Of a stretch of 64,000 nt of DNA, positions 2,457 through 35,100 are shown in pieces. The notes under the pieces were generated by a model. The model saw nothing but the letters and a program-made list of their open reading frames with translations, did no database searches and was not told where the DNA came from. Where the stretch lies: NCBI GenBank assembly GCA_963727525.1, contig CAVSGO010000007.1:288001-352000 (forward strand). Direction: 5' to 3'. A program made the position numbers and the translations under genes. Source of the DNA: an uncultured bacterium (GTDB lineage: Bacteria > Krumholzibacteriota > Krumholzibacteriia > LZORAL124-64-63). Numbering within the stretch: the stretch's first letter is position 1; each line of letters opens with the position of its first letter.

Positions 2457-2665
2457 GGTGGACCTTTCGACATGGTATGCAAGTGCACGGGAGCCTCTCC
2501 TTACCAGTCTAACCCAGGAAGCCGGGGCGTAAAGGCGAACAGCGGTATCTAGGTTGGCAGGACGGGGAATCCCGGGTTGGGCAACCGGCCCCCGACGTGG
2601 TAAATTCGAGGCGGACGACGGATCCCGAGAGGTTCGATCTCAATGCCGGGAAAGCGGAGGACGCG

Positions 2666-13050: not shown

Positions 13051-14586
13051 GTGTCCATGCGCCGTCTGCGCCCCTGGTGGTTCGTCTTCGTCATCGTTCT
13101 TGCCCTTGCTCTGGTCGTTGCGGCGCTGTCGCCCACCTGCATCGTGGCGGCCGTCGTCGATCTCGGTCCCATCCCCGCGACCGAACAGAACGTGCAGGGC
13201 GATCGTCTCCCGCTGGCGACGGATCACGGTTTCCTGTCAACGCAGGAAGACGGTCCTTGCCTGACGGCGTCCCAGCGCGCGGCCATCGTGGCCGATCTCG
13301 CGGCCTCGCGCGCCGCGCTGCAGGCGGCGGGCGTGCTGCCGCCCGTATTCGATCGGACGCAAACGGTCACCCTGCAATGGCCGTTGCAGGCGGCGCCATG
13401 GGTGATGGACCCCGGCGTGCACGGGATCTCGAACTACGTCGACCATGATCCGAGCTACCCGGATCAGCTGCTCGACTACGCGTGCGGCGCGCGCACCTAC
13501 GACCAGGCGAACGGCTACAACCATGCGGGCACCGACTACTTCATGTGGCCCTTTCCGTGGCACAAGATGATCGACCAGGACGTTGCGATCGTGGCGGCCG
13601 CGCCCGGCTTCATCATCCTGAAGTACGACGGGAATTTCGATCGGAGCTGCGGCCTGAATGGTGGGCTCTGGAATGCCGTCTATGTGCAGCACGCCGACGG
13701 GTCTGTGGCGTGGTACGGACACATGAAAGCGGGATCGCTCACCAGCAAGCCCGTGGGGTCCACCGTCGAGGCGGGGGAGTACCTCGGCTCCGTGGGCAGC
13801 TCGGGCAACAGCACGGGCCCGCACCTGCACCTCGAGTTGCACGACGGCAGCGGCAACCTCGTCGATCCTTATCTGGGCCCGTGCAACGCCCTGGACGGCG
13901 AGAGCCGGTGGGCCCAGCAACGGCCCTACGATGATTCCGCCATCAACGCGCTACGCACGCACGATGCGCCACCCGAATGGCCCGACTGTCCCGAGCCGGC
14001 GATCACGCACGAGCAGGATCGGTTCCTCGCCGGCGATCTCGTCTACTTCGCGGCCTACTACCGCGATCAGCTCGCCGGACAGTTGACCCAGTTCGCGGTG
14101 CTGCGTCCGGACGGCTCGACCTGGCGCGCCTGGAGCGGCGGGATGTCGTCGCCAGACCACTACGCCGCGAGCTACTGGTGGTGGAACTGGGTACTGCCCC
14201 CGACGGGGCCCGACGGCTGGTGGACATTCCGCGCCACGTTCGAGGGTCAGACGGTGGAGCATCGTTTCGCGGTCGGTGAGAGCACCCCGGTCCCCGATAC
14301 GTCTCCGGCAGGGCTCACGCTCGCGGCTCCCCACCCCAACCCGGCGAATCCGCGCACGGAGGTCCGCTACACGTTGCCGGCGCCGGGTGCGGTGTGGCTC
14401 TCCGTTTACGATGTGCGCGGTCGCCGTCTCCGGGAGTTGACGCTCGGCGTCCAGGTGCCGGGCGACCACGCCGTGACCTGGGATGGTTGCGATGCCGCCG
14501 GCCGCGATCTGCCGTCGGGCACGTACCTCCTGCGCCTGCAGACCGAAGCCGGCTCCCTCACCCGCAAGGTCCAGCTCGCGCGCTGA
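13051..14586 (+). CDS. M23 family metallopeptidase with FlgD-Ig C-terminal domain
   Basis: GAGGAGG RBS; HAGTD (HxxxD), YGHM, GSSGNSTGPHLHLE; C-terminal PHPNPANP..WDG..SGTYLLRL. Confidence 0.88.
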   Translation: MSMRRLRPWWFVFVIVLALALVVAALSPTCIVAAVVDLGPIPATEQNVQGDRLPLATDHGFLSTQEDGPCLTASQRAAIVADLAASRAALQAAGVLPPVFDRTQTVTLQWPLQAAPWVMDPGVHGISNYVDHDPSYPDQLLDYACGARTYDQANGYNHAGTDYFMWPFPWHKMIDQDVAIVAAAPGFIILKYDGNFDRSCGLNGGLWNAVYVQHADGSVAWYGHMKAGSLTSKPVGSTVEAGEYLGSVGSSGNSTGPHLHLELHDGSGNLVDPYLGPCNALDGESRWAQQRPYDDSAINALRTHDAPPEWPDCPEPAITHEQDRFLAGDLVYFAAYYRDQLAGQLTQFAVLRPDGSTWRAWSGGMSSPDHYAASYWWWNWVLPPTGPDGWWTFRATFEGQTVEHRFAVGESTPVPDTSPAGLTLAAPHPNPANPRTEVRYTLPAPGAVWLSVYDVRGRRLRELTLGVQVPGDHAVTWDGCDAAGRDLPSGTYLLRLQTEAGSLTRKVQLAR

Positions 14587-19959: not shown

Positions 19960-20561
19960 GTGGACTCGAAGGAGTATCAGGTACCTACCGCCGGCAAGTG
20001 GAGTCTGGCGACACCATCGAAGCGGGTGCGACGTCTCGTCACCTGCGTACGGGACCAGCGCCAGGCCGAGACCAGAGACACGATGTCGCCGGCTACCGCG
20101 GTGACCACCAGCGTGAGTATCGAGTCCGAAGCCGACGCTGCGGCGCCGATCGCCAGCACAGCTAGCCGATCGTGGAAGACTTCTTCACGTGGTTGCATCA
20201 TTCACAGGCGAAAAAGGCATTGTTGCCGAGCGGACTCTTTGCCAGGGTCTCAGTGTACGCCTTGGTGTGCCAGTCGGCGTTGACGATGTTCCTTGAGGAT
20301 CGGGGGTACCGTTGGATACGAACCACCTGGAGCCCCAGACCCGTTCGATCGCGGTGAGCCGGAAGAACTGGCTGTCCTGTTGGACGGAGATCGGAGCGAA
20401 GTCCGTGGGAGTCGCTTAGATCCTGGCCACGATCCGTGTGCTGCAAGGCGTGGAGCCGTATACGTATCTGGTGGAGTGCTGAAGCGGTTGGACACGACCG
20501 ACGCACACCGAAAGCTCACGATCCCCATTACCCATCCCGCGACGCCCGGTCCCCAACACAA

Positions 20562-20640
20562 GCCGGGGGGCTCTGTCGGTGGGTGAGATGGCGCCTCATT
20601 CCATGCGAAGCCACCTCACCCACCGACAGAGCCCCCCGGC
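20562..20640 (-). terminator. Long perfect hairpin after the last selenoprotein paralog
   Basis: 26-bp perfect inverted repeat 20562-20587 / 20615-20640, 22 nt past the stop at 20663; weak TTGTGTT tail. Confidence 0.65.
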
Positions 20641-20662
20641 GCTCTGCGCCATCCCGCAGCGT

Positions 20663-22666
20663 CTATTTGACGAGAGTCATCTTTCTCGTCAGCGTCTGCG
20701 CGTCCGTCGCCAGGCGATACACGTAGGTGCCAGAGGCGGCGGCAAGACCCGAGTCGGTCCGGCCGTCCCACACCACGGCGTGATCGCCCGATGCCATCGG
20801 CTCGTTGATCAGAGTGCGTACCATGTGGCCCTGCAGGTCGAAGACCTCCAGGCGCACCGGGCCGCGCTGGTCGAGCACGAAGGCGATCTTCGTGGACGGG
20901 TTGAAGGGGTTGGGCTGGTTCTGGGCGAGCGTCAGCGGGCGCGGCGCTTCGTCCTGGACCGGCGTCGAACCACCGGGGATCAACCAGTCGAGGCTGTTCT
21001 GCATGACGGCGTCGCGACTCGCGGCATCGGCGATGCCTTCCAGGCCGAAGCCGAGGAACACGATCTTGAAGCCGTTCATGTCGGTGCGCGAGCCGGCAAC
21101 GCGATCATTCGCGTAGTCGAAGATCGGCACGGCATCCGAGTAGTAGGTCTGGAACCAGTCGGGGTCGGACTGGTTGTTGGCGCCGTCGCCACCGGTGAGC
21201 TCGAAGGCGAGTCCGTCACCGATGGCATCGTCCGCCACACCCACGACCGAAGTACTGCCGGAGTTGCCACCGCGGAGGCGAATCCGGGTCTTGTTCTGGA
21301 ACCAGGTATTGAGGCCGTCGGCGTAGAGCGCCTCGGCGAGGTCCTGGCCCGACCAGAGCATGCGGCCGCCGGCGCCGAGGTAGGCGTCGATGGCGTCGCG
21401 GTCTTCGGCGTTGAAGCCGGGGTTCGCGTTGCCGCAGGCCCACACGACGGCGTCGAACATGCCGAGCGACGCCGCGTCGACCGTGGTCAGCGAACGGTTC
21501 CAGATCGTCACCGTCCGCCCGGCCGCGGTGATGGCCGGTTCGAAGTAGTCGGCGGCATAGCCCGCGTCGGCATCGTCGGCGATGAGCAGCACGTCGCGGC
21601 CGCCGGGCACCGCGAGGAAGCTCGCGGAGGCCACGGTCGCCTGGGCGCCCTGGCTATGCACGTTCAGCGTCACGGTGCCGTAGTCCGCGTCGGCCGCGTC
21701 CGTGGTCACCACGAGCTGCGTCGTGCCGAAGCTGGGGATCGGCACCGTCACGCTGGTGCCGTCCACACCATCGTGCGTGAAGTGGGCCGACCAGCCGGTC
21801 GGAAGCTGCGACGTGTCCAGCGTGATGTCGTAGACGTCGTCTTCCAGACCGAAGTTGGTGACGGTGGCCGTGCCGAAGACCAGCGGTCCGCCGGTCGCGA
21901 CGGCCTGCTGCTGTCCGTCAACGGCAACGCCGCCGGCGAACGGCAGGCTGCGGCTGTTGCCGCTGTTGTAGATGAACTTGTCGGTGTCGCGCTGTACCCA
22001 GACGATCGCTTGCATGTTCGCCGGGTTCCAGTCACCCATGACGAAGGGCAGCGTGACCGTCTGGATGTCGCCGATGTTCTGGGCCGTCAGCGGCGTGCCG
22101 GTGGCGTTGGGAAGCATGTCGCGCAGCACGTGTTCGAACGTGCGCGGTGCGTAGTAGAGGTCGCTCTCGACGATCGCGACACGCAGGTACGTGTTGGCGA
22201 TACTCGCAAGGTTCTCTCCGACGATCTCCACCTGCGCCGTCACGGAGGCGTTCCCGGGGGTGAAACTGTAGGCCTCCACCGTCACCGAGACCGGCGTGGT
22301 GTTTGTCCAGTGGTTCTCGATCACCGGGAAGTAGAGATGCCCGTCCATGGCGTCCGTACCGGCTCCGACGATGTGGTAGAACCCATCGAAGTAGAGGTCG
22401 GGGATGCCGCTCATGCTGTAATAGCTCTGACGCTGATCCGATTCCGGACAGCTCAGACCACCGCTCGATGCGAGGTAGTTGATGTAATTGAACTGGGTCG
22501 GTTGGTAGGTGTCCTCGCACACGGCGAGTCCCGCTTCAGCGTTGGGGCAGTACACTCACCAGGTGGCGGCGCCCAGCTCGGCCAAGACCGTGCGGGGCAC
22601 CTGGGCGTTGGCGACGGCGCTCGTCATCAAGACGCCGAACACCAGCAGCGACAGCATGCGCTTCAT
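20663..22666 (-). CDS. Putative secreted selenoprotein C: Omp28-like thioredoxin fold (UxxC) + Ig-like + alpha/beta domain + FlgD-Ig CTD, 667 aa
   Basis: GGAGG RBS, ATG 22666, MKRMLSLLVFGVLMTSAVANAQVPRTVLAELGAATW, in-frame TGA 22558-22556, then VYCPNAEAG continuing 630 codons. Confidence 0.88.
22514..22528 (-). promoter_or_regulatory. Candidate bacterial SECIS hairpin (paralog C)
   Basis: CTCGC-CGTGT-GCGAG; loop starts 33 nt after the UGA. Confidence 0.55.
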
Positions 22667-22720
22667 GGTTTTCCTCCGGAGGGTTGGCAGCTTCGAACAT
22701 GCCCGCGGGCATATGCTTCG

Positions 22721-22729
22721 ACGATAGCA
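22721..22729 (-). promoter_or_regulatory. Extended -10 element (paralog C)
   Basis: TGcTATCGT about 55 nt upstream of the ATG, at the same relative position as in paralogs A and B. Confidence 0.4.
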
Positions 22730-22811
22730 CATGCTCCTCGAGTATACCAGTGTAACCTGATGGGAATTGATGTTTTAAAACGGTTCTCATGATCAGGATG
22801 CCTGCCTGTGG

Positions 22812-22841
22812 CACGGCCTCCCACCGGAGCGGGAGGCCGTG
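22812..22841 (-). terminator. Hairpin after paralog B
   Basis: 11-bp inverted repeat CACGGCCTCCC/GGGAGGCCGTG, similar to the hairpin at 25011-25042. Confidence 0.6.
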
Positions 22842-22860
22842 ACGTCGGCACGAGGATGCC

Positions 22861-24870
22861 CTATTTCACCAGGGTCATCTTCCTCGTCAGCGATTGCGTG
22901 TCGGTCTGCAGGCGGTACACATAGGTGCCGGAAGCGGCGCTTGGACCGTTATCGGTCCGGCCGTCCCACACCACGGTGTGGTCACCCGCGTCCATAGCTT
23001 CGCTGGCCAGCGTACGCACCAGGCGGCCCTGCAGGTCGAAGACCTCCAGCCGCACGGGACTCCGCTGGTCGAGAACGAAGGCGATCTTGGTCGACGGGTT
23101 GAAGGGATTGGGCTGGTTCTGGGCGAGCGCCAGGGGTTTCGGGGCCTGGTCCTCGACCGGCGTCGACGTGGTGCCGATCAGCCAGTCGAGGCTGCTGTCC
23201 ATGACGCTGTTGCGGTCCGCCTGGTCGGCGATGCCCTCGAGGCCGAAGGCCAGGAACACCAGCTTGTAGCCCGTGATCTCGATGCGGCTGCCTGCCAGCG
23301 CGCCGGTGCCATACTGGAATACCGGGATGGCGTCGGCGGTCAGTGTCTCGATCACGTCGGGGTCGCTCTGATTGTTGGCGCCGTCGCCGCCGTTCAGGGT
23401 GAACGCGAGCCCGTCGCCGATGGGATCGTCGGCCACGCCGGTGATGGCAAGGTTGCCGGAATTGCCGCTGACGACTCGGCAGCGGGTCTTGAATTGCATC
23501 CAGAGGTTGGCCGAGCCACCTTCGGCCTGCAGGTCCTGGGCGATGTCCTGACCCGTGATGAGGATCTTGCCGCCGGCCGTGAGGTAAGTGTCGATCGCGG
23601 CGCGATCGGCCGCCTCGAGACCGGGATTGGTGCCGCCGCAGGCCCACACGACCGCGTCGAAGTGACTCAGCACACTGCCGTCGAGCGCCGTCAGGTTGCG
23701 GTCCCACACGGAGTACGTGCGGGCCGACGCGCCGACCGCGGGACCGACGAAGTCGGTGGCGATGTTGTCCAGGCCGTCATCGGCGACCAGGAGCACGGTC
23801 TTGGTACCCGACACTGCGACGAAGTCGAGGGAGGCGACGTTGGAACCCGCTCCCTGGCTGGCGATGTTCAGCGTGACCTGTCCGCTTTGGTCGTCGGCCG
23901 CGTCGATCGTCACGACGAGGTCAAGGCTGTTGAAGCTGGCGAGCGGCAGCGTCATGCTCGTGGCGTCGGCGCCGTCGTGCGTGAAGTGCGCGTCCCAGCC
24001 GGCCGGAAGGCTGCCCAGTTCCAGGCTGATGTCGTAAACATCGTCCTCGAGGCCCAGGTTCGTGACCGTGGTGTTGCCGAAGGCTACCGGGCCGCCCTCG
24101 GAGACTGCCTGCTGCGCGCCATCGATGGCCACGCCGGCCGCGAAGGGCACCATGAGGCTGTTGCCGCTGTTGTAGATGAACTTGTCGGAGTCGCGCTGCA
24201 CCCAGACGATGATCTCCAGGTTCGCGCTGTTCCAGGCGCCCATGGTGAACGGCAGGGTGAACTCTTGCGTCTCGCCGCTGTTCTGGATGGTCAACGGCGT
24301 GCCCGTTGCGCTCGGCAGCATGTCGCGCAGTACGTGCTCGTACGTCGAACCGCCATACACGACATCGTTCTCGATGATCGCCGCGCGCACGTAGGTGTTC
24401 GCGGTGCTCGTGAGACTGCCGTCGATGAGTTCCACGCGCACGGTCGCGTACGCGTTGCCGGGCGCGAAGCTGAAGTCCGTCACGGCGACCGCAACGGGTG
24501 TGGAGTTGGTCCAGTGATCCTCGATGATCGGGACGTAGATGTGTCCGTCCTGGGCATCGGACCCGGCTCCGACAAGGTGGTAGTAGCCGTCGAAGAACAG
24601 GTCGGGAATGCCGCCCATCCCGTAATAGCTCATGCGCTGGTCCGATTCCGGGACGCTCAGGCCACCCGAGGAGGCCATGTAGACGATGTAGTTGAACTGT
24701 GTCGGATAGTAGGTGTCCCCGCACACGGCGAGGCCCGCTTCAGCGTTGGGGCAGTACACTCACCAGGTGGCTGCGCCGAGCTCGGCCAGCACCGTGCGTG
24801 GCACCTGGGCAGTAGCGACGGCACTGATCAGAAGCAGGCTGACCGCCACCAGCGATAGCAATCGCTTCAT
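22861..24870 (-). CDS. Putative secreted selenoprotein B: Omp28-like thioredoxin fold (UxxC) + FlgD-Ig CTD, 669 aa
   Basis: GGAGG RBS, ATG 24870, MKRLLSLVAVSLLLISAVATAQVPRTVLAELGAATW, in-frame TGA 24762-24760, then VYCPNAEAG continuing 632 codons. Confidence 0.88.
24717..24733 (-). promoter_or_regulatory. Candidate bacterial SECIS hairpin (paralog B)
   Basis: CCTCGC-CGTGT-GCGGGG with a U-G wobble; same loop and spacing from the UGA as in the other paralogs. Confidence 0.55.
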
Positions 24871-24922
24871 GGTTTTCCTCCGGAGGTTGGCAGCTTTGAA
24901 CGATGCCCGTAGGCGTCTGGTG

Positions 24923-24952
24923 ATTTTAGCATGATCTTTATGGAGAATCCAA
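24923..24952 (-). promoter_or_regulatory. Putative sigma70-type promoter (paralog B)
   Basis: TTGGAT-18 nt-TAAAAT with TG extension (TGcTAAAAT). Confidence 0.5.
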
Positions 24953-25007
24953 GTTCAACTTTCGGTTGCTCAAATAAAGAAACAATACTCATTATCTTTT
25001 GACAACG

Positions 25008-25042
25008 AAAATCCGGCCCCCCACCAGAGTGGGAGGCCGGAT
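25008..25042 (-). terminator. Intrinsic terminator after paralog A
   Basis: Minus strand ATCCGGCCTCCCAC-TCTG-GTGGGGGGCCGGAT followed by TTTC. Confidence 0.7.
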
Positions 25043-25069
25043 CGTACGACAAGGGCTCGCAGCGTGTAT

Positions 25070-27085
25070 CTACTTGACCATCAACATCTTCCGTGTCAGA
25101 CGCTGGTTGCCCGCATCCAGGCGATACACGTACGTGCCCGACGCGGCCTGCTGACCGGCGTCAGTGAGACCGTTCCAGACCACGGCGTGGTCACCGGCCG
25201 CCATCGCCTCGCCTGCCAGCAGCGTGCGTACGAGGCGGCCCTGCAGATCGAAGACCTGTAGGCTCACCGGTCCGCGCTGGTTGAGCGCGAAGGCGATCTT
25301 GGTCATCGGGTTGAACGGGTTGGGCTGGTTCTGGGCGAGTGCCAGGGCCTTCGGGGCCTGGTCCTCGACCGGTGTCGACGTGGTGCCGATCAGCCAGTCC
25401 AGCGAGTTGTGCATGACCATGTCACGATCGGCCTGACTGGAGATGCCCTCGAAGCCGAAAGCCAGGAACACCAGCTTGTATCCCGAGATCTCGATCCGGC
25501 TGCCGGCCAGTGAGCCATCGCCGTAGTGGAACACGGGAATGGCGTCGGCCGTCAGCGTCTCGATGACATCCGGGTCGGTCTGGTCGTTGGCGCCGTCGCC
25601 ACCGTTGAGCGTGAAGCTCAGACCATCGCCGATCACATCGCCCGACTCACCGTCGATCTGGAAGTTGTTCGAGTTGCCGTTGAGGAACCGGCAGCGAGTC
25701 TTGAACTGCATCCAGAGGCTGGCCGAACTGCCCTCGGCGGCGAGGTCCTGGGCCACGTCCTGTCCCGTGATCAGGAGGCTGCCGCCGGCGGCGAGATAGG
25801 TGTCGAGTGCTGCGCGGTCGGTGTCGCGCAGACCGGGATTGGTACTGCCGCATTCCCAGATGACGGCATCGTAGTCCGTCAAGACGTTGCCATCGACCGG
25901 ACCCAGCGACCGTTCCCAGGTCGCGTAGGACTTGCCGGCGGACATGATGGCGGGGCCGAAGTACGGATCGGTGAGTCCGGCACCGTCATCGTCGGCGACC
26001 ACCAGCAGATCGGTGCCGCCGGCGAGGCCGGCGAAGGTCAGCGTCTTCACGACTTCCTGACCGGCCTGGCTGAACACCGTGAGGTCGGTACGGCCGGAGC
26101 CGCTCGCGCCCGGCATCATCGTCACGACGAGGTCTGTGCTCGTGAACGGATCCAGTGTCACCGTCGTGCTCGTGCCGTCGACACCGTCATGCGTGAAGTG
26201 GGCGCTCCAGCCCGCGGGCAGCGACGACGTATCGAGCGAGATGTCGTAGGTGTCCTGCTCGGTACCCACATTCACGATGCTCGTCGTGCCGAACACGATG
26301 GGATCGGAACCCTGCGCGATGACCTGCTGGGGACCGTTCACCGCGGCCTGCACCGAGTAGGGGCCGACCTCGCTGTTGCTGCTGTTGTAGATGAACTTGT
26401 CGGTGTCACGCTGCACGAACACGATCGCGTTCATGTTGGTAGCATTCCACGTGCCCATCGTGAACGGCAGGTGCAGGGTCTGCTCCTCGCCGTCGTTCTG
26501 GATCGTCAGTGGCGTGCCGGCCGCATTGGGCAGCATCTTGCGGCAGATGTGGGTGTAGTACTCGTGTCCACCGTACGTGAGGTCGTCCTCGATCAGGACG
26601 ACGCGGATGTACGTGCTGGCGTTGCTCGCCAGGTCGCCGAAGAGCTTCACCTTCACATCGACGAATGCGTCGGTGTGGTCGAACGACCAGTCCGTCACTG
26701 CGCACGCGACCGGTGTGGTGTTGAGGAAGTGGTTGTCGATGATCGGGATATAGGTGTGCCCGTCGACTTCACCGGATCCGGCGCCCACGACCTGCTGGTA
26801 ACCGTCCCACCGCAGGGTGGGGAAGCCGGTCACGCCGTAGTAACCGATGCGCGTCTGCGAGTCCGGGTTGTTGAGCCCGCCGGAGTTGTCCTCGTAGCAG
26901 ACGTACTTGAACTGGGAGTCTTCATAGAGGCCGTCGCACACGGCGAGGCCCGCATAAGCGTTGGGGCAGTACACTCACCAGGTGGCCGAGGCCATCTCGC
27001 AAAGCACCGTCCGGGGCACCTGGGCCGACGCCACAGCGCCGCACAGCAGAATGCCGAGCGCAACGGTAGTAGCCAGTCGCTTCAT
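25070..27085 (-). CDS. Putative secreted selenoprotein A: Omp28-like thioredoxin fold (UxxC) + FlgD-Ig CTD, 671 aa
   Basis: GGAGG RBS, ATG 27085, MKRLATTVALGILLCGAVASAQVPRTVLCEMASATW, in-frame TGA 26977-26975, then VYCPNAYAG; YGVTGFPT cis-Pro motif; FVQRDTDKFIYN. Confidence 0.88.
26929..26950 (-). promoter_or_regulatory. Candidate bacterial SECIS hairpin (paralog A)
   Basis: GGCC-TCGC-CGTGT-GCGA-C-GGCC (8 bp with one bulge); same loop and spacing from the UGA. Confidence 0.55.
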
Positions 27086-27131
27086 GGTAACCTCCAGGGG
27101 TTCGCGACTTCGAAATTCGAGACCGCTACCG

Positions 27132-27160
27132 ATTTTATCAGGTATCCCTGTGGGGGGCAA
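27132..27160 (-). promoter_or_regulatory. Putative sigma70-type promoter (paralog A)
   Basis: TTGCCC-17 nt-TAAAAT with TG extension (TGaTAAAAT). Confidence 0.55.
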
Positions 27161-27238
27161 GGGGTGAATCCCGTAAACTGTTGTGATGCAGTAAATTCAA
27201 AAACAGGAGAAATTCGCAGTTTTACCCACTTCGGCGTC

Positions 27239-27269
27239 AAAAACGGCCCCGGCTGGAGCCCGGGGCCGT
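27239..27269 (-). terminator. Intrinsic terminator after the TlpA-DUF6029-like gene
   Basis: Minus strand ACGGCCCCGG-loop-CCGGGGCCGT followed by TTTT. Confidence 0.75.
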
Positions 27270-27295
27270 CGGCTTGCGCCGCGCGCGGTCGGCGC

Positions 27296-29281
27296 TCAGT
27301 AGCGGAATACCCCGAAGCATTCCACGCCCTCGAACGCCGGCTCGAACTTGCAGACGCCGCCCGAGCACAGGTAGCCCGCCTGGCGCTTGCCGAACCACAC
27401 GTTCAGGCTGCCGCCGTCGTCGAGGGTGTAGCTCACCTGGCCGGCGGGGAAGCTGCTGCCCTGCACCTCGCCCGAGCCGAGCTGGGCGTCGAACTTGTTG
27501 TTGGTCTCGAGGATCGCGTCGAAGGCCCAGTGGGGCGCGATCTCGTGCTCCAGCTTGTACCACTGCTGGTCGTACTTGCCCAGCACGCCCAGGCGCACAT
27601 GTTGCTGCTCGGCCTGCAGCGTCCAGCTGCGGACGGCGCTCTGGTACCAGGTGAGTTCGCCGATCACGGTCTGGCGGATCGCATCCTCACTATCGCGATA
27701 GCCGAATCCGGCGCGGAACCGGAAGTCGCCGAGGCGCTCCTGTTCGAGGTGGCCGTAGATCTCCTCGAAGAGATGCTCGTTCGCGTGGTTGGCGATGCGG
27801 CTCGCATTCGCGAGGGCGTTCCAGCCGTGGGGGCCGGTGTAATTGGCTTCCACCTGCCAGCCCTTCTCATCGTCGGGATCGAGGTTGTGCGGCGCGCGGT
27901 TCAGCAGCGTGTAGATGTGCTCGCGCACCAGGGCGGGCGGACGGTTGAGCGGCTGCTTGCCGTCGGCGCGCTTGATCACCGAAAAGTCACGGTAGTCGCT
28001 GTGTTCCACCGAGAGGCTGACCGGTCCTGTGTACAGGTTCAGATTGCCGTAGTAGGCCTTCCCCGGGGCCTTGTCGAGCGTGGTGGGATCGACGTCGAAA
28101 CCGGTCTTGTGACCGTACTCGAAGTAGGCGTCGCCCTTGCCGAAGAAGAGGCTGGCGCGGCCCGAGGCCACCCACTCGCGCTTGATGTCATCATGCGAGG
28201 GGAGCAGCGACGGCTCGTAGGTCAGGGCCGTGCCTCCCACCTTGAACGCCCATGGCAGTCCGAGCGCCCCGGCGAGCGGCACGTCGAAGGCCGCATCGAG
28301 GCCGCGCACGTCGACGTCGGCGATCTCCGCGCCACTGGTGGCATCGAGCACGCTGGCGGTGCCGGTGGTGCCCGAAAAGACCTGCATGTCGGCGGGGCCG
28401 GCCTGGCCGCGCACGTAGATGCCGTCGAGGCTCGTGTCGACGCGGATGTTGCGATCCTCGTAGCTGTTGAAGACGATGCCGCGGCCGAACATGCCGTAGA
28501 ACTGGCCCACCCGCACGAACGCGTCGCCATTGTTGTACTCGAAGAAGCGGTGGACGATCTTGTTGCGCCGGTTGCCCTCCTCGCTCGGCGCCTGGTGGTC
28601 GAGCAGGATGCCGGTGCGGAAGTCGCCGAAGAGGTACACGACGTCGAGCCAGTTCTCCACCTGCTCCTCGTCGGAGCTGGTGTCGTACTTGTACTTGAAC
28701 TGATCGCGCACGCTGAGCGCATCGCGCCAGTCCACGCCGCCGGTGCCCGCGGAGGCGGCGAGCGGCTCGGTCGGCTGCGTGAGCAGCGTCTCCAGCGCGA
28801 GCCGCACCTCTTCCTCGTCGCCGTCCTTGTAGCCGATGTGGCGGAACGCTTCGGCGCCATTCGCGTCGAATACGACCACGAAGGGAATCATGCCGCCGAT
28901 CTGCATGATCTGCTGCACGTCGCCCGCCGTGTCGAGGGCCACGATCACGTCGTCGTAGCCGCGCGACTGCACGTAGGGCTGCACCTTCGCCACGCTCTTG
29001 CTGTTGTCGATGTTCACGGCGATGAATGTGGCCTTGCTCGCGTACTCGCCGGCGAGCCGATTCATCTGCGGTAGTTCCTTGAGGCACGGGTTGCACCACA
29101 GCGCCCAGAACGACACGACCACCGGCCCCTGGGCCAGTTGCTCGCGCAGGTTCACCGTGCCGCCGCTGGCGGTGGGCAGGGTCCAGTCGGTGCTCAGGTA
29201 ATCGACGGCGGCCGCCGGCAAGGCGGCGCCGGCGAGAATGAGCAGGGCGAGGAATTGCAAAGCCCGGCGGTGGACCACCAT
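27296..29281 (-). CDS. TlpA-like disulfide reductase fused to a DUF6029-like outer-membrane beta-barrel
   Basis: Signal peptide; SFWALWCNPCLKELP; barrel region VGQFYGMFGRGIVFNSYEDRNIRVDTSLDG; C-terminal CSGGVCKFEPAFEG...FRY; AAGGAG RBS. Confidence 0.8.
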   Translation of the reverse strand: MVVHRRALQFLALLILAGAALPAAAVDYLSTDWTLPTASGGTVNLREQLAQGPVVVSFWALWCNPCLKELPQMNRLAGEYASKATFIAVNIDNSKSVAKVQPYVQSRGYDDVIVALDTAGDVQQIMQIGGMIPFVVVFDANGAEAFRHIGYKDGDEEEVRLALETLLTQPTEPLAASAGTGGVDWRDALSVRDQFKYKYDTSSDEEQVENWLDVVYLFGDFRTGILLDHQAPSEEGNRRNKIVHRFFEYNNGDAFVRVGQFYGMFGRGIVFNSYEDRNIRVDTSLDGIYVRGQAGPADMQVFSGTTGTASVLDATSGAEIADVDVRGLDAAFDVPLAGALGLPWAFKVGGTALTYEPSLLPSHDDIKREWVASGRASLFFGKGDAYFEYGHKTGFDVDPTTLDKAPGKAYYGNLNLYTGPVSLSVEHSDYRDFSVIKRADGKQPLNRPPALVREHIYTLLNRAPHNLDPDDEKGWQVEANYTGPHGWNALANASRIANHANEHLFEEIYGHLEQERLGDFRFRAGFGYRDSEDAIRQTVIGELTWYQSAVRSWTLQAEQQHVRLGVLGKYDQQWYKLEHEIAPHWAFDAILETNNKFDAQLGSGEVQGSSFPAGQVSYTLDDGGSLNVWFGKRQAGYLCSGGVCKFEPAFEGVECFGVFRY

Positions 29282-29396
29282 GGTTGCTCCTTCGGCGCGG
29301 CGCGTGACGGGAGGGGCGACCGCCTCACGCGGTTTCGCCCCGTCTCCCGGGCCGGATCGGCACCGGGGGACGGGGCGCTGGGATGGTTCTCGGGTC

Positions 29397-30533
29397 CTAC
29401 TTGACGAGCGACATCTTCACTGTCTGGGTCTGCGCGCCGACCTGGACCTTTGCCAGGTACACGCCCGTGCCCAGGGGATCGCCCGCGCCGTCGCGGCCGT
29501 CCCAGCTCACGCTCTGGCTGCCCGGGGCGACGAGCCCGGCATCGAGCGTGCGCACCTTCTGACCGCGCACGTCGTAGATGTCGATCGCTGCCGGCAGGGC
29601 ATGGTCGCCACCCACAGCGAAGCGGATCTCCGTGCGCGGATTGAACGGGTTCGGCGTTGCCTGCACCCCGCTCAGCAGCGGCTGCGCCATGTCTTCCACG
29701 CCCACGAGGCCTTCGGTGGACACGTAGTACGTGTACGATCCCACGACGGCACCATCGGTATTGCTGGCGATGTTCAGCGTCATCGAACCTGCACCCGTGG
29801 TGAAGAGGGGTGTGAAGTCGAGGTCGAAGTCGAGGAAGCCGCCGCTCGCGACGACACCAGTGACGGGCACGGTGAAGTCGGTCTGCGACGGCGGGTAGCA
29901 GATGCCGTCGTAGCACACGGTCGCGCTCCAGTCCAACGGCATGTCGCGAGTCACGGTCAGCGTGTAGCTGTCGTCCTGCATGCCCGTATTGAAGAGCGCG
30001 GTGTGGAAGCGCACGACTTCACCGTTGTTCGCCGGCAGTATGTTGGCGCCGGGGGCGAACGTGAAGGCCACGGGTGCGTCGCTCAGGGGAAGCACGGTGT
30101 ACGTCACATGCTCGTCGTAGCTCGGGTCGCTATTACTCGTGATGTTGATCGTGTAGGTTCCCGGTCCCTCGGTCACCAGCGTCGTGATGTCGAGATCGAC
30201 CTCAGTGGTTTCGCCCGGCGCGAGCGTACCGGTCTCGGGCACGATGAAGTCGACCAGGTCCGGCGTGTAGCAGACGCCGCCGTAGCATACGCTGAGGGTC
30301 CAGTCGTCGGGAATGTCCTTGGTGACTGTCAGGTGGAAGGTGTCGGCGTTCTCGCCGGTATTCGTGAGTTGCGCGATCACCTGATAGTACGAGAAGATCG
30401 GCATCACCACCGTGGTGGGGCCTGGGTTGTACTGGAGACCGTGGGGTGCTGCCAGGGCGGGGCCGGCGGTGAGGGCCAGCATGAGGCCGCCGGCCAGGCT
30501 ACAGAGGCAAGCGAGCTTGCGCAGGGTCGACAT
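29397..30533 (-). CDS. Secreted protein with two Ig-like repeats (each W..xVCYxGxCY) and FlgD-Ig CTD
   Basis: Signal peptide; repeats DWTLSVCYGGVCYTP and DWSATVCYDGICYPP; PNPFNP..WDGRD..GVYL. Confidence 0.8.
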   Translation of the reverse strand: MSTLRKLACLCSLAGGLMLALTAGPALAAPHGLQYNPGPTTVVMPIFSYYQVIAQLTNTGENADTFHLTVTKDIPDDWTLSVCYGGVCYTPDLVDFIVPETGTLAPGETTEVDLDITTLVTEGPGTYTINITSNSDPSYDEHVTYTVLPLSDAPVAFTFAPGANILPANNGEVVRFHTALFNTGMQDDSYTLTVTRDMPLDWSATVCYDGICYPPSQTDFTVPVTGVVASGGFLDFDLDFTPLFTTGAGSMTLNIASNTDGAVVGSYTYYVSTEGLVGVEDMAQPLLSGVQATPNPFNPRTEIRFAVGGDHALPAAIDIYDVRGQKVRTLDAGLVAPGSQSVSWDGRDGAGDPLGTGVYLAKVQVGAQTQTVKMSLVK

Positions 30534-30536
30534 GAG

Positions 30537-31817
30537 TTACCTCCCGGAATGCAGGGGTGGAGGGGGGGACGTGGCGGCGCGCGCGGTGTTCGTCAGCGTA
30601 GAACCGGCCTGGACCACGACTTTATCACTGGTGCGCTGGACGAAGGCCACCAAGGCCTTGCCATGCGGCGTCAAGATCGAGACGGGGTTGGTGGTGGGAT
30701 CGGGTTCGACGAGGGTGACAGAATAGTCGTGCAGTCCGGCCGCGAGCGCGCCCAGGTTCATCGAGGCCACGACGTGATCGCGGACGACGTTGTGGAACGT
30801 GCTGACGCCCTGATACACGGCCGCCGTCTCGACCTCCTCGTAGGTCAGGACGACACTCAGCGAGTAGCCGGTGAGATCGACGTCGGCAGGCAGATCGAGC
30901 GTGACGGTGGCGTCGACATTGAGATCGCTGAAATCGGGCGTCGGGATGATGATCGCGAAATCGGCGTCCCCGCTCTCCGCGACGATGCTGCTTTGCATCG
31001 CGGTGACGCCCGGCGGGGTGCCATAGGCACCGGCCAGAGCGCCATCGATGAAGAGCGACGGGTGGTTGAAGGAACCAGCCGGATTGTAGTACGCCATGCG
31101 CGCGTCCATCACCTGCTGCGACGTCCAGTAGAAGGGATCGGCGGGTGTGGGCACGTCTCCCACCCATTTCACGTAGATGACCTGGTCGGCGCCGTAGCCC
31201 GGTTGGCTCTGCAAGTACTCCACGTTGGCGTTGAAGGCCGGACAGCCGGTGCAGTGTACGTTGGAGAATCCCTCGAACAGCACGATGCGTGCGATGGCGA
31301 GCGAGGTAAGGGCGAAGTCGGCGGTGGCCGTCTCTTCGGCCACGACCGACACCTCCCGCGACTCCGGGTCGACGTCGAATCCATCCAGGACCACCGACAC
31401 CATGTGATCGCCCGGCAACAGGTCGGTGAAGGTGTGGGGCGTGAGGAACCCGCTATCGGTGCCGTCGAGCATGATCGCGGCGCCGGCCGGCGTCGACGTG
31501 ACGGTGAGGCCGCCCACGTGCGCGGCGAGCGTGAAGTCCGCACCTGCCGTGCCCCCGTAGGGGACGGTGACGGTGCGCTGGGCCGGGATCGGTGTGTGGT
31601 CTGCGAGTTCGACCGCGATATTGTACGTGCCACCTTCAACGTCAGTGAAGGTATGGGGAGTCACGTACGCGGTCACGGCGCCGTCGAGGCGGATGGCGGC
31701 CCCGGAAGGATCGGACGTGACCGTGAGGTCGCCAGGGGCCGGGGCTTCGCGGCCGCAGGCGGCCACGAGTACCAGCGTGACGAGGACGATGGCGAGAGCA
31801 GAGTGGCGGACGCGCAA
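30537..31817 (-). CDS. Lipoprotein with two PEGA domains and an Omp28-like CxxC thioredoxin-fold domain
   Basis: GGAGG then TTG 31817; lipobox VAAC; PEGA repeats VTSDPSGAAIRLDG / VTSTPAGAAIMLDG; RIVLFEGFSNVHCTGCP; HNVVRD; VAFVQ. Confidence 0.8.
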   Translation of the reverse strand: MRVRHSALAIVLVTLVLVAACGREAPAPGDLTVTSDPSGAAIRLDGAVTAYVTPHTFTDVEGGTYNIAVELADHTPIPAQRTVTVPYGGTAGADFTLAAHVGGLTVTSTPAGAAIMLDGTDSGFLTPHTFTDLLPGDHMVSVVLDGFDVDPESREVSVVAEETATADFALTSLAIARIVLFEGFSNVHCTGCPAFNANVEYLQSQPGYGADQVIYVKWVGDVPTPADPFYWTSQQVMDARMAYYNPAGSFNHPSLFIDGALAGAYGTPPGVTAMQSSIVAESGDADFAIIIPTPDFSDLNVDATVTLDLPADVDLTGYSLSVVLTYEEVETAAVYQGVSTFHNVVRDHVVASMNLGALAAGLHDYSVTLVEPDPTTNPVSILTPHGKALVAFVQRTSDKVVVQAGSTLTNTARAATSPPPPLHSGR

Positions 31818-32193
31818 CGCGTAACCCTCCGGGGTTGAGGATGAGGGTGGGGGCGCTTGCGAAATCATGCGGCACACGACGAAAGCCCAGTATACTATCC
31901 GGAGCTCATGCGAGTCAAATCGTTATGCCGATCGAACCGGTCCGGTCGTGATATTCGCGACTGTACCGTGCACGGGTCGCCTCCCCGCCGCGGGTTCTCT
32001 TCCCAGTCCCGAAATGATCAAATATCAATCACGGGTCTGGAATTAATCCTATAAAAATCCTGATAACATTAAAAATTTTAGTTGTTCAATATTCAACAAG
32101 GTGCTCTCGTGTGCTATCCTGAATGCTGGTTTTCGCAACTCGATTGCCCCGTGCGGAGCGTGCGGGGCCCGTACCCAGTGAAAGGAACCGAGA

Positions 32194-35100
32194 ATGCGCT
32201 TGCGATATTCCCTCGCGGCCATGCTGGTGCTCGTCCTGGCGGCCGGGACGGCGCTGGCCGGTACCCACAGTATTCCCGTATCCGGCGACCATGCTCAGCT
32301 CACGCTGGCGAACGAGAGCCCCACGGCTCTGCGGTATCACATCGAGGTAGGCACCCTCGAGGCCATGGATGTCGCGACCAAGGGTGGCGACTTCACGCGC
32401 CTGCTCATTCCCGGTTTCCACAGCTCCCAGGTCGACGGCGCTCCCGAGCTGCCGATGATGAATCGGCTGATCAGCGTGCCCTTCGGCGCCACGGCACGGG
32501 TCGAGATGACCAACGTGCAGACGCGCACGGTCAAGCTGGCGGACTTCGGCGTCACCAGTGCGCTCATGCCGCACCAGCCGAGCCTGGCGAAGAACCAGGA
32601 TCCGGCGACGGTGCCGTTCCTGTACGACGCGGCGGCCTACGCGCAGACCAAGGTCGAGCGTCCGCTCGCGCAGGTCGTGTCCCAGGGCCGGCTGCGCGCC
32701 ATGGATATCGCGCGCCTGGAGATCTCGCCGGTGCGGTACCTGCCGGCCAGTGGTGAGCTGGAAGTGGTCTCGAGCTTCGACCTCGCGGTCGATTTCGACG
32801 GCGCCGATCAGGCTGCCGGCGAGGCGCTGCGCGCCAGCACGTACAGCCCCTTCTTCCAGGGCCTGTACACCATGGTCGACGGCAACCGGACCTTCCAGGA
32901 CGACTACCCCGACCGTGTGGGTGACGTCGTCACGATGGTCATCGTCACGCCGCCCGAGTTCGAGGCCATGCTGGCCGACTACATCGCCTGGAAGACCGAG
33001 CGCGGATTCCGCGTGGTCGTGGGCGTCATCGGCTCCGGCGAGGTGGGCTCCACCACGACGAGCATCCGGACCTACGTGCAGGGCCTGTACAACAACGCCA
33101 CGCCCGAGCTGCCGGCGCCGAGCTTCGTGCTCTTCGTCGGCGACGTGGCCCAGTGCCCGACGTTCCAGGAGTCCGGCGACGCGACCGACCGCCCGTACTG
33201 CGCGGTCGACGCCGACCTGATGCCCGACATGTACTACGGCCGCATGTCGGCCACGAATCCGTCGCAGCTGCAGGCGCAGCTCGACAAGACCATGATGTAC
33301 GAGACCTACTCGATGCCGGATCCCGGCTACCTGGATGAGGTGACGATGATCGCCGGCGTCGACGGGTCCTACGGCCCGGTGTGGGCGAACGGCCAGATCA
33401 ACTACGGCACGTCCACGTACTTCAACGAGGCGCACGGCATCCTGAGCCATACCTACCTCTATCCCGAGTCGGGCAGCGCCGAGGCTCAGATCATCCAGAA
33501 CCTGAACGACGGCGTGGCCTACATCAACTACACGGCGCACGGCAGCGAAACGGGCTGGTACGATCCGGCCCTGACCCAGGCCAACGTCAACTCGTTGACC
33601 AACGCGGGCAAGTACTGCCTCGCGGTCGGCAACTGCTGCCTCACCTCGACCTACGACTACGGCGAGTGCCTCGGCGAGACGTTCCTGCGCGCTCCCAACA
33701 AGGGCGCCGTCGGCTACATCGGCGGTTCCAACTCCACGTACTGGGACGAGGACTACTGGTGGGGCGTCGGCTACACCTCCAGCATCATCGTCAACCCCAC
33801 GTACGCGGGCACGCACCTCGGCGCCTACGACGGCATCTTCCATGAGCACGGCGAGGCGCAGGATGGCTGGTACGTGACCAACGACGCCATCGTGTTCGCC
33901 GGCAACCTCGCCGTGACTGAGGCGGGCTCGAGCCGTATCACGTACTACTGGAATATCTACAATCTGCTGGGCGACCCGTCGCTGTCCACGTGGATCGGCA
34001 TGCCGGACGTGAACCCGGTGACGTACCCGCAGACCGTGTTCGTCGGCACGCCGACCTTCACGATCACCGGCGCCAACGGCACCTACGTCGGCCTGACCCA
34101 GGACGGCGTGCTGGTGGGCAGCGGCACCATCCCCGAGAGCGGCAGCCTCGACATCGCGTACACCCAGGTACTCACGCCCGGTGTGCCCCTGAAGCTGGTC
34201 GCCATGGCGCAGTTCATGGAACCGGTCATCACCGAACTGAACGTGATCGTGCCGGCCACCGTCACGATCAACCCGATGACGATCGACGCCAACACGCCGA
34301 CCGCCATCACCGTCACTGTGATGGACGCCGGCGGCGTGGTGCCGCAGCAGGGCATCAACGTCTGGGCCGAGGGTCTCGAGTATACGACCACTCCGGTGAT
34401 GACGAACGCCAGCGGCGTGGCCGTGATCAACGTCAACTATCCGTACGGCCCGACGCTGGATATCGTCGGCCAGGATCCAAGCGAGACCTACCGGCTGTTC
34501 ACGGAGCAGGTCGCGGTCAACGCCCAGGCGCTGACGAATCCCGACCTCACCGTGACCACTGCGATCGGTCTCGACGATGCCTTCCCGCTGAACCTGCCCG
34601 GCACGCTGCACGCGAGCGTCGGCCAGACCGGCTACACGCTGTACGCGCTCATGCCGGATGGCTCGGTGCTGAGCAGCGCCACGTCGACCCTCACGGCCAC
34701 GGCCACCGAGCCGGGCCAGGTGACGGGTATCATCGCGCGCAGCGGCTACGACCTGTATAGCGAGGCATTCGATGTGATCGAGGCCTACGGCACCGTGAGC
34801 GGCACAGTCACCACCGGCGGCTCCCCGCTGACCGGCGTCACCGTGCATATGTTCGATGGCGCCAATGAGGTCTTCGCGGCCACGACGAACGGCAGCGGCG
34901 TCTATACCGCGCCCGAGGACATTCTCGTCGCCAACTACACCATCGTGGTGGATCACTTCGGCTATCTGCACTTCGAGCAGGGCGTGTTCGTGAATTATGG
35001 CGCGAACACGTTCGATATCGCGCTCACGGCGGCCCCTTCGGGTACCCTGAGCGGCCACGTGTACGACTCCGTGTCGTTGGATCCGCTCGAGGGCGCCACG

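Follow-up and report, generated by a model that had tools for sequence, protein, structure and literature searches.

Three tandem genes with an in-frame TGA as probable genes for exported selenoproteins with a thioredoxin fold and a predicted type IX sorting domain

Three paralogous genes and their neighbourhood

We analysed a stretch of 64,000 nucleotides (the window) that carries three tandem paralogous genes, each with a single in-frame TGA (Table 1). Translation table 11 yields ORFs of 630, 632 and 634 aa, each beginning at a GTG directly 3' of this TGA, and reading through it extends the frames to 667, 669 and 671 codons. The first-pass annotation had described for each paralog a ribosome-binding site, an ATG, a signal peptide ending AxA|QVPR, a TGA at codon 37 and about 630 in-frame codons past it; we recovered all of these features, with the TGA codons where they had been placed. 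The GGAGG motifs lie 6-7 nt upstream of the ATG in the three genes, the predicted signal peptides end in ANA, ATA or ASA followed by QVPRTVL, and the motif ATW-U-VYCPN is identical in all three. The TGA was said to be kept despite divergence of the signal peptides. This holds: a stretch of about 50 nt that runs from GCCACCTGGTGA to GTGTGCG is almost invariant among the paralogs, whereas the signal-peptide DNA has diverged. Gene callers were expected to truncate such genes, and the public gene calls found for the Sec forms are indeed shortened: all are named hypothetical, and the signal peptide and catalytic residue are missing from every one. A search for RNA runs gave none that contains the locus.

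Table 1. Features of the locus (positions in the window).
Feature	Position	Strand	Remarks
Paralog 1, selenoprotein gene	20663..22666	minus	667 codons; ATG 22666, stop TAG 20663-20665
Paralog 2, selenoprotein gene	22861..24870	minus	669 codons; ATG 24870, stop TAG
Paralog 3, selenoprotein gene	25070..27085	minus	671 codons; ATG 27085, stop TAG
Paralog 1, Sec37 TGA	22556..22558	minus	W-U-V-Y-C-P; first base 22558
Paralog 2, Sec37 TGA	24760..24762	minus	first base 24762
Paralog 3, Sec37 TGA	26975..26977	minus	first base 26977
Paralog 1, GGAGG ribosome-binding site	22673..22677	minus	motif match
Paralog 2, GGAGG ribosome-binding site	24877-24881	minus	motif match
Paralog 3, GGAGG ribosome-binding site	27091-27095	minus	motif match
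Paralog 1, predicted signal peptide	22604-22666	minus	
Paralog 2, predicted signal peptide	24808..24870	minus	21 codons, ends ATA|Q
Paralog 3, predicted signal peptide	27023-27085	minus	
Paralog 1, candidate SECIS hairpin	22514..22528	minus	CUCGC-CGUGU-GCGAG; 30-44 nt after U of UGA
Paralog 2, candidate SECIS hairpin	24717..24733	minus	
Paralog 3, candidate SECIS hairpin	26928..26951	minus	9+ bp stem, loop CGUGU
Paralog 2, N-terminal module, HBP35/Omp28-like	24157..24807	minus	thioredoxin fold (U16-x-x-C19, invariant P68; mature numbering) + Ig-like sandwich; alignment, model, structure comparison
Paralog 2, alpha/beta domain, class I glutamine-amidotransferase-like fold	23173..23799	minus	mature residues about 337-545
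Paralog 2, FlgD_ig / predicted T9SS type A sorting domain	22864..23091	minus	C-terminal
TlpA/redoxin domain (WCNPC) fused to DUF6029	27296..29281	minus	661 aa, stop TGA; upstream of paralogs, same direction
Exported protein, two CxGxxC repeat domains, T9SS-type CTD	29397..30533	minus	378 aa
PEGA-domain protein with Omp28-like Cys-form domain	30537..31877	minus	HCTGCP on Sec column
Terminator-like hairpin	20562..20640	minus	38-nt arms, -86.8 kcal/mol, without U tract; just past array's last gene

The Sec genes close a conserved cluster that comprises the PEGA/Omp28-like Cys protein, the CTD protein and the TlpA-redoxin-DUF6029 protein. The order Omp28-like (Cys), CTD protein, TlpA-DUF6029 and, where present, Sec forms is kept across the family, and in a Marinimicrobia genome DUF6029 precedes a Cys form, which in turn precedes a Sec form. 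As proposed, the first Cys of the neighbouring Cys-form protein (RIVLFEGFSNVHCTGCP) aligns on the TGA column. The DUF6029 domain is presumed to be an outer-membrane barrel; its gene is split in another genome of the comparison set. The genome also encodes DsbD, and genes for secreted C25, M14 and M23 peptidases are co-located with the selenoprotein genes.

The TGA codon and its decoding

We searched 208 genomes of the same phylum for Omp28-like matches and counted in-frame TGA codons by hand. Exactly one was present in 116 of the 150 matches listed; of the 47 best orthologs among them, 44 have exactly one. The alignment column of the TGA could be read in 30 loci: 28 have U and the remaining two have Cys. 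Cys is likewise the residue in three full-length homologs from the databases (P0053, P0055 and P0057), so that the homologs examined show only TGA or Cys at this position, as expected of a selenocysteine site. The recurrence of a single TGA in 44/47 best orthologs, at the same column in 28/30 loci, is far beyond chance. Upstream of it, residues V2, P3, E9, A13, T14 and W15 are invariant across 27-31 sequences. Elsewhere TGA works as an ordinary stop: it terminates five of the 12 window genes examined, and in several orthologs it directly follows the conserved C-terminus.

The genome encodes the machinery for selenocysteine insertion, with one caveat. An intact selA (462 bits), selD (365 bits), which itself carries a TGA, and tRNA-Sec (70 bits, anticodon TCA) all score above their cut-offs, as does selB (302 bits). 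The last is split in the assembly: its residues 1-460, 461-531 and 538-632 each align in a frame of their own, and the SelB-wing_3 match is present only in a shifted frame. DNA alignment with three intact orthologs revealed two 1-nt deletions, both in the SECIS-binding C-terminal part; one adjoins a G8 homopolymer and the other lies within a GC-rich repeat. Homopolymers and GC-rich repeats are typical places for consensus indel errors. Should the deletions prove genuine, this strain would fail to insert Sec.

A hairpin 27-50 nt after the UGA is a candidate SECIS element with modest support. When the Sec genes were compared with synonymous shuffles at 94 sliding-window positions, the sole strong dip in z fell 7-9 codons past the U; the mean z at this dip is -1.0 to -1.1, with negative values in 83-93% of the 30 Sec genes, and the candidate region is more stable than the shuffles in 25/30. 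Covariation is partial; only two of five measures beat shuffles in this comparison, and the slide by -1 gave the higher covariation score. RNAalifold found no consensus structure on the codon alignment, the Rfam SECIS families gave no match, and the three window copies, when folded singly, did no better than their dinucleotide-shuffled controls (z -0.83, +0.15 and -0.97).

Domains of the predicted products

The N-terminal module is modelled as a thioredoxin fold with UxxC in the catalytic position, which makes redox activity a prediction. In the model (pLDDT 96), a strand at residues 6-12 leads to U16/C19 and a helix at 19-32, i.e. the order is beta1, U-x-x-C, helix 1, and U-V-Y-C caps the N-terminal end of this helix. 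All 31 sequences aligned have P68, which lies immediately N-terminal to the strand 69-72 (beta3) and probably forms the conserved cis-Pro loop of the fold. The nearest solved structure is HBP35 (5y1a; Foldseek E 7e-11; VIA Z 23.7, rmsd 2.3 A over 209 residues). Thioredoxins were retrieved as well, 1fo5 by the family profile (E 7e-6) and 3kcm by Foldseek.

The first-pass annotation had described an Omp28-like protein with a C-terminal sorting domain. The latter is recovered above cut-off in all three paralogs by TIGR04183 (26.8, 33.1 and 30.5 bits; cut-off 23) and FlgD_ig PF13860 (37.7-50.5 bits; cut-off 27). For the Omp28 part, Pfam PF11551 (29.4, 32.5 and 34.5 bits) matches just below its gathering score of 34.9. 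Together with the predicted signal peptides, the C-terminal matches agree with the earlier proposal that the products are exported and probably surface-sorted. We read the C-terminus as a T9SS sorting domain and predict transport by this system. Two of its components are present in the genome: PorU scores 436.5 bits against a cut-off of 420, and the matches to SprA sum to 480 bits (cut-off 200). Adjoining PorU is a PorV-like gene that reaches just 91 bits (cut-off 250). The alpha/beta domain of paralog 2 (23173..23799) had no match in Pfam.

Interpretation and known relatives

The TGA/Cys column and the thioredoxin fold with UxxC strongly support the reading of the three genes as selenoprotein genes, as first proposed, with the split selB as a caveat. 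We consider it about 80% probable that they encode full-length (~670 aa) exported, T9SS-sorted Sec thiol/selenol oxidoreductases, acting as follows. The codon-37 UGA would be decoded as selenocysteine by SelA, SelB, SelD and tRNA-Sec, as the comparative data suggest, probably guided by the hairpin 27-50 nt downstream. The product would be exported via its cleavable signal peptide; the FlgD_ig-type domain would act as the sorting signal and, once recognised by type IX secretion, lead to release or anchoring at the cell surface. In the HBP35/Omp28-like catalytic module, Sec would be the N-terminal attacking residue of U-x-[YF]-C, facing the conserved cis-Pro loop. It would attack a disulfide or other oxidised substrate, with Cys40 resolving the intermediate as a selenenylsulfide. 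Such chemistry would make the paralogs extracytoplasmic thiol/selenol oxidoreductases, whose redox state may be supplied or controlled by the products of the gene cluster (PEGA/Omp28-like Cys, CTD protein and TlpA-DUF6029).

Other explanations of the open frames are less probable. Reassignment of TGA to one of the standard amino acids (Trp or Gly), or sequencing errors, would account for the open frame itself and nothing further; it is contradicted by the TGA stops in window genes and orthologs, by the presence of only Cys besides TGA at the column, and by the recurrence of the codon in three diverged paralogs and dozens of independent assemblies, which makes it exceedingly improbable. The shortened ORFs, starting at the GTG after the TGA or further in, could instead be the real products, with the upstream 36 codons left untranslated in them. 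Gene callers give exactly such ORFs, and HBP35 also yields internally initiated cytoplasmic forms (PMC2907840). Yet the 36 codons carry the ribosome-binding site, ATG, signal peptide and invariant residues, the Cys-form orthologs run continuously through the site, and the product would keep a secretion CTD without a signal peptide while losing half of the CxxC-type motif. We regard this as very unlikely.

The state of selB raises a different question, namely whether these are selenoprotein genes by descent in a locus in early decay, where translation now ends at codon 36 because the two frameshifts inactivated selB. The three frames of this gene and the displaced SelB-wing_3 match fit such decay. 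Against it, the paralogs retain 667-671 unbroken codons, ribosome-binding sites and signal peptides, selD retains its own TGA, the deletions lie at typical sites of consensus error, and a second gene, that for DUF6029, is split in another genome of the set; decay is thus rather improbable. Finally, the proteins may be made as described while the Sec/Cys pair serves mainly for binding or capture of a surface ligand (heme, metal or metalloid). HBP35 is a hemin-binding protein that supports growth when hemin is scarce (PMC2907840), and there is no obvious electron donor outside the cell. This use is unlikely, although somewhat less so than decay, since the U-x-x-C, cis-Pro and fold are those of catalytic thioredoxins and the same two Cys of HBP35 give thioredoxin activity (PMC2907840).

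Within the oxidoreductase reading, the neighbourhood invites a speculative extension, to which we give a low probability: a dedicated envelope-spanning relay in which reducing power from the cytoplasm would pass through DsbD, the TlpA-like domain and the presumed DUF6029 barrel to T9SS-displayed Sec/Cys thioredoxin-fold proteins as its outermost members. The cell would thereby gain an extracellular Se-dependent disulfide reductase, and disulfide-rich proteins would be opened by it together with the C25, M14 and M23 peptidases. To our knowledge, few bacterial selenoproteins are known at or outside the cell surface; a Sec enzyme with a type IX sorting domain would, if confirmed, put selenium redox chemistry there. 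At present these real genes are misannotated, their Sec forms being shortened and named hypothetical. As a result, proteomes and secretome predictions of this candidate phylum (one member is labelled Krumholzibacteria), and apparently of Marinimicrobia too, miss a widespread family. The conserved TlpA-DUF6029 linkage also gives a handle on how redox activity is maintained outside the cytoplasm in thioredoxin-fold proteins of the Omp28/HBP35 type, the uncharacterised GOS_C family among them.

Whether the family had been described was left open in the first-pass annotation. A related UxxC selenoprotein family is known, the 'Omp28-related selenoprotein' NF045500, which corresponds to 'Hypothetical protein GOS_C' (Zhang & Gladyshev 2008, PMC2398784) and is listed as such, with UxxC, in a table of PMC13188914. 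We compared it through its HMM and published description, taking the family motif from these two papers. Of the NCBIfam models, NF045500 matches the N-terminal module best, through its positions 40-279. The paralogs score 31.0, 47.6 and 40.8 bits, far from the cut-off of 200, and membership was rejected on this score; no match passed the cut-off in their own genome or in the 208 phylum genomes (0/208 at E<=1e-20). The two groups have in common an Omp28-like domain, a Trx-like fold, a single Sec in UxxC and Cys-form homologs, and both are uncharacterised as far as these descriptions extend. The NF045500 model spans 377 positions versus ~670 aa in the paralogs, which add an Ig-like domain, a GATase1-like domain and the predicted T9SS CTD. 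The paralogs form a new branch within a selenoprotein group that has received little study, with NF045500/GOS_C as a distant relative. The Omp28 domain (Pfam PF11551; NCBIfam counterpart NF033782, Omp28 family lipoprotein) matches all three at residues about 78-243; the paralogs have a signal peptidase I-type site in place of a lipobox.

Like other periplasmic or secreted Trx-fold UxxC selenoproteins (thioredoxin-, DsbA- and redoxin-like; PMC13188914), the paralogs have Sec for the N-terminal Cys of CxxC, and Cys orthologs exist. They differ from those proteins, as that paper's table presents them, in the T9SS CTD, the multidomain surface-protein architecture, the tandem arrays and the TlpA-DUF6029 linkage. 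The closest characterised parallel is HBP35 of Porphyromonas gingivalis, a CTD-dependent surface protein and type IX secretion cargo whose insulin-reducing activity needs its two Cys (Shoji et al. 2010, PMC2907840). It shares with the paralogs the thioredoxin fold plus beta-sandwich N-terminal module, a mature protein that begins with Gln and has its CxxC-type motif close to that end, and a C-terminal T9SS sorting domain. Surface location and thioredoxin activity, reported for HBP35 (PMC2907840), are predictions for the paralogs. Sequence identity is 16-17%, and HBP35 lacks their second Ig-like domain and GATase1-like domain and has Cys where they have Sec.

Three tandem genes carrying an in-frame TGA

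Under translation table 11, the minus strand holds three ORFs that each begin at a GTG immediately 3' of a TGA, and reading through this codon extends each of them to an upstream ATG. As the first-pass annotation had described, the read-through genes have a GGAGG preceding the ATG, an N-terminus typical of a signal peptide (ending in A-x-A, then QVPRTVL) and a TGA at codon 37. It is the only in-frame TGA in each gene, its context is ATW-U-VYCPN and the stop codon is TAG. The annotation also held that the TGA was kept while the signal peptides diverged, and this is what the three copies show when their DNA is aligned: about 50 nt, from just 5' of the TGA to about 40 nt 3' of it, are nearly invariant and the signal-peptide region has diverged. 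Its alignment of the TGA to the first Cys of a neighbouring protein is borne out by a gene with Cys at that column. Two inverted repeats accompany the array. The repeat directly after the last paralog (38-nt arms, hairpin of -86.8 kcal/mol, z -10) has no U tract and is unique in the window. The weaker one, just 3' of the stop of paralog 2 (20-nt arms, 80% complementary), could act within the array as an internal terminator or a processing site.

Positions of the features discussed (L, extracted locus; G, genome, G000 being the window's own; C after a G number, contig; g3, a genus; CTD, C-terminal T9SS sorting domain)
Feature	Located in	Positions	Detail
Paralog 1	window, minus strand	20663-22666	ORF 630 aa; 667 residues from ATG at 22666
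Paralog 2	window, minus strand	22861-24870	ORF 632 aa; 669 residues from ATG at 24870
Paralog 3	window, minus strand	25070-27085	ORF 634 aa; 671 residues from ATG at 27085
Inverted repeat, strong	window	20562-20640	
Inverted repeat, weaker	window	22803-22850	
378-aa CTD protein	window	29397-30533	two repeats with C-x-G-x-x-C
Gene with Cys at the TGA column	window	30537-31877	
Secreted peptidases with FlgD_ig-type CTD	window	13051-14586; 32194-36945; 37883-40444	
Locus containing selB	L002 (G000 contig 5)	675092-679078	
selD	L010 (G000 contig 8)	225636-226547	one in-frame TGA
Full-length Cys form of the 670-aa architecture	L138 (g3)	1562-3520	
DUF6029 gene in two pieces	L021 (G111:C29)	3-1273 (local)	
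Ig-like sandwich	mature paralog 2 (model)	105-216	
Second sandwich	mature paralog 2 (model)	224-333	
Alpha/beta domain	mature paralog 2 (model)	~337-545	
CTD	mature paralog 2 (model)	573-646	

A six-frame search with the 259-residue N-terminal part found matches in 92 of 208 genomes of the same phylum. By hand count, exactly one in-frame TGA occurs in 116 of the 150 matches listed and none in 34 (26 more matches fall outside this count). The 47 with E ≤ 2e-41 are the orthologues of about 670 aa; a single TGA is present in 44 of these and absent from three. We inspected 30 loci, the window's own included: the TGA stands at the identical column in 28 (ATW-U-x-[YF]-C), and the remaining two read ATW-C-G-Y-C. 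Cys also occupies the Sec column in the full-length database homologues P0053, P0055 and P0057. TGA serves as an ordinary stop as well, ending five of the 12 window genes examined and lying, in several orthologues, directly 3' of the conserved C-terminal ...LVK/LVR. A search of sequencing runs returned no RNA run with the locus; two DNA runs share only 5-7% of sampled words, and their contigs are short pieces of relatives, with the TGA sites outside them.

Comparative work normally takes a Sec/Cys pair in a CxxC-type motif, together with the machinery, as proof of a selenoprotein gene. We consider these to be genuine selenoprotein genes, with a probability of about 0.9 as a statement on the gene family, which supports the original interpretation. 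That the full mechanism operates in the three paralogs is also likely, with slightly less confidence; their function, substrate and electron source we infer.

Decoding machinery and a candidate SECIS

The genes that the first-pass annotation proposed to look for are found in the genome (96.7% complete, 8 contigs), but one of them is split over three frames. They are selA (462 bits), selD (365 bits), tRNA-Sec (70.4 bits; anticodon TCA by ARAGORN) and selB (302 bits). Since selD carries an in-frame TGA of its own, Sec-encoding genes number at least four in this genome. The selB match ends early, with the C-terminal winged helix in another frame; compared with the intact SelB of five relatives (635-645 aa), residues 1-460, 461-531 and 538-632 fall in three different frames. 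DNA alignment places two single-base deletions at local positions ~905-912 and ~1126 of the locus, one beside a G8 run and the other in a GC-rich repeat. Either the assembly has consensus errors at these sites, or the lesions are real and Sec decoding would have been lost recently in this strain. Neither the three paralogs nor selD show decay, which favours an error in selB or a very recent event. An apparent frameshift is present in another assembly of the set, where a DUF6029 gene aligns as two overlapping pieces in different frames.

An Rfam scan of 20000-32000 (E ≤ 10) returned no SECIS family, only several sub-threshold miRNA-like matches on the strong inverted repeat. RNAalifold gave no consensus structure for a 32-sequence codon-anchored alignment, and the three window sequences folded singly were not better than dinucleotide shuffles. 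Three other results point to a recurrent hairpin 27-50 nt 3' of the U of the UGA. Measured against synonymous-codon shuffles (mean z -0.92), its region has the greater stability in 25 of the 30 Sec genes, but not in the two Cys genes. A sliding scan over 94 window positions has one strong dip only, in windows that begin 7-9 codons past U (mean z -0.99, -0.98 and -1.12; negative in 93, 83 and 87% of genes), the next-lowest value being -0.81, upstream of the TGA. For one specified 8-bp helix, 68.8% of cells pair versus 63.1 ± 1.2 in shuffles (0/500 reach it), and the covariation score is 0.186 versus 0.131 (0/500). One of its pairs changes from U-A to C-G in eight sequences. On the other side, pairs with double changes are no more numerous than in shuffles, and the -1 register has a higher covariation score, since clades differ in the register of the upper stem. 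We see in this hairpin a candidate SECIS whose support is modest; its spacing is at the far end of the range allowed by bacterial SECIS models. Another hairpin, 12-29 nt after the UGA, was dropped as a SECIS because the windows covering it (offsets 3-5) are less stable than synonymous shuffles.

Domain architecture, probable type IX sorting and the gene cluster

Mature paralog 2 was modelled with 27 aligned sequences at a mean pLDDT of 87, and its N-terminal 217 residues alone at 96. The N-terminal elements of the model are a strand (6-12), a loop with U16, a helix (19-32, C19 at its start), a strand and a helix; P68, invariant in the alignment, lies immediately before strand 69-72. On this model the N-terminal part is predicted to fold as a thioredoxin, the motif and the Pro loop both occupying catalytic positions. 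Its best match among solved structures is HBP35 of P. gingivalis (Foldseek E 7e-11, TM 0.77; VIA Z 23.7, rmsd 2.3 Å over 209 residues), followed by 2axo and a thioredoxin, and the family profile matches thioredoxin 1fo5 by sequence (E 7e-6). HBP35 is a T9SS-dependent surface protein, and the recombinant protein reduces insulin, an activity abolished by changing its two Cys to Ser (PMC2907840). The alpha/beta domain is similar to class I glutamine-amidotransferase-like domains (Z 14-18), and a Pfam search with it alone found no family. By BLASTP, the C-terminal half has only the CTD in common with the C25 peptidase next to the array.

The suggested profile search places FlgD_ig (PF13860) over cut-off in all three paralogs, in which the T9SS type A sorting domain (TIGR04183) also scores above its own. 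The genome encodes a PorU sortase (436.5 bits) with an adjoining PorV-like gene (91 bits, below cut-off), SprA (480 bits) and DsbD. A CTD of the type seen in the paralogs occurs in at least 50 other ORFs. Secreted peptidases with such a CTD are abundant near the paralogs: an M23 peptidase, a 1583-aa gingipain-like C25 peptidase with propeptide and P-domain, and an M14 carboxypeptidase.

Three genes lie upstream of the paralogs on the same strand: a 661-aa TlpA/redoxin (WCNPC)-DUF6029 fusion, then the 378-aa CTD protein, then a PEGA protein with a Cys-form Omp28-like domain; the C25 peptidase is divergently oriented. One 11-kb locus of genus g15, inspected in full, has the identical gene order, with two Sec genes versus three. 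Of 29 foreign loci, the seven from the nearest relatives have TlpA-DUF6029 at most 1.5 kb upstream of the Sec gene, and two more distant genomes keep the order Omp28-like Cys protein, CTD protein, TlpA-DUF6029 without Sec genes after it. By hand comparison, at least 31 of the 93 DUF6029-bearing genomes have an Omp28-like match on the same contig, no more than ~5 kb away; within the phylum the two occur in the same families only, but relatives are not independent. In genus g3, the full-length Cys form occupies the place of the 378-aa protein, and the cluster members thus resemble rearranged pieces of one protein type. The arrangement recurs in another phylum: in a Marinimicrobia genome (L134/L135, G209 contig 14), a DUF6029-like ORF is followed by an Omp28-like protein in Cys form (360 aa) and this by a Sec form of 603 aa with ATW-U-PYCP, the last two each with a CTD. 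A second Omp28-like selenoprotein family with CTD (~880-890 aa, motif G-U-P-Y-C-P; L136, G164:C3, and L137, G119:C2) is present in the majority of genomes of the same family and is the source of many one-TGA matches listed; none turned up in the window's own genome.

Relation to known selenoprotein families

In a collection of 5.8 billion proteins, 62 relatives were retrieved at E ≤ 1e-10, the close ones of 586-634 aa at 88-94% coverage. They are named hypothetical, 'Omp28-related outer membrane protein' or 'FlgD immunoglobulin-like domain containing protein [Candidatus Krumholzibacteria bacterium]'. The expectation that gene callers truncate these genes holds for the three entries inspected (P0005, P0048 and P0056), which start after the TGA; P0048 is identical to the product of a genome in the same class as the window's. 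A homologue search with the 259-aa N-domain gave two fragments only, and a related-locus search of genome contigs with a single protein gave no match. The same search with an alignment returned mostly unrelated proteins sharing only the CTD and was set aside.

No link of Omp28, HBP35 or type IX secretion to selenocysteine appeared in the literature searched, survey supplements being outside the search. 'Omp28', 'FlgD' and 'T9SS' are absent from the main text of a 2026 review (PMC13188914), and 'Omp28' from BSepDB (PMC13326102); family lists in supplements could include these proteins. The best NCBIfam match is NF045500, 'Omp28-related selenoprotein' (31-48 bits against a cut-off of 200), which a table of the review lists as 'Hypothetical protein GOS_C' with motif UxxC (PMC13188914). 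GOS_C is described in a 2008 ocean-metagenome paper as a Trx-like fold with a conserved UxxC; the paper counts 74 sequences with Sec and 312 with Cys, and names no function (PMC2398784). In five genomes from other phyla there was no true member of NF045500, and sub-threshold Omp28-like matches arose in one Marinimicrobia genome only. At E ≤ 1e-20, NF045500 matches none of the 208 genomes of the phylum, and the window's proteins therefore form a separate, distantly related family. The first-pass annotation had left open whether the family is undescribed: it is separate and has a larger architecture than NF045500/GOS_C, but that related UxxC family was known. The kind, Omp28/GOS_C-type thioredoxin-fold UxxC selenoproteins, is thus already known; in the window it is joined to additional domains and a T9SS sorting signal, triplicated in tandem and attached to a conserved TlpA-DUF6029 cluster.
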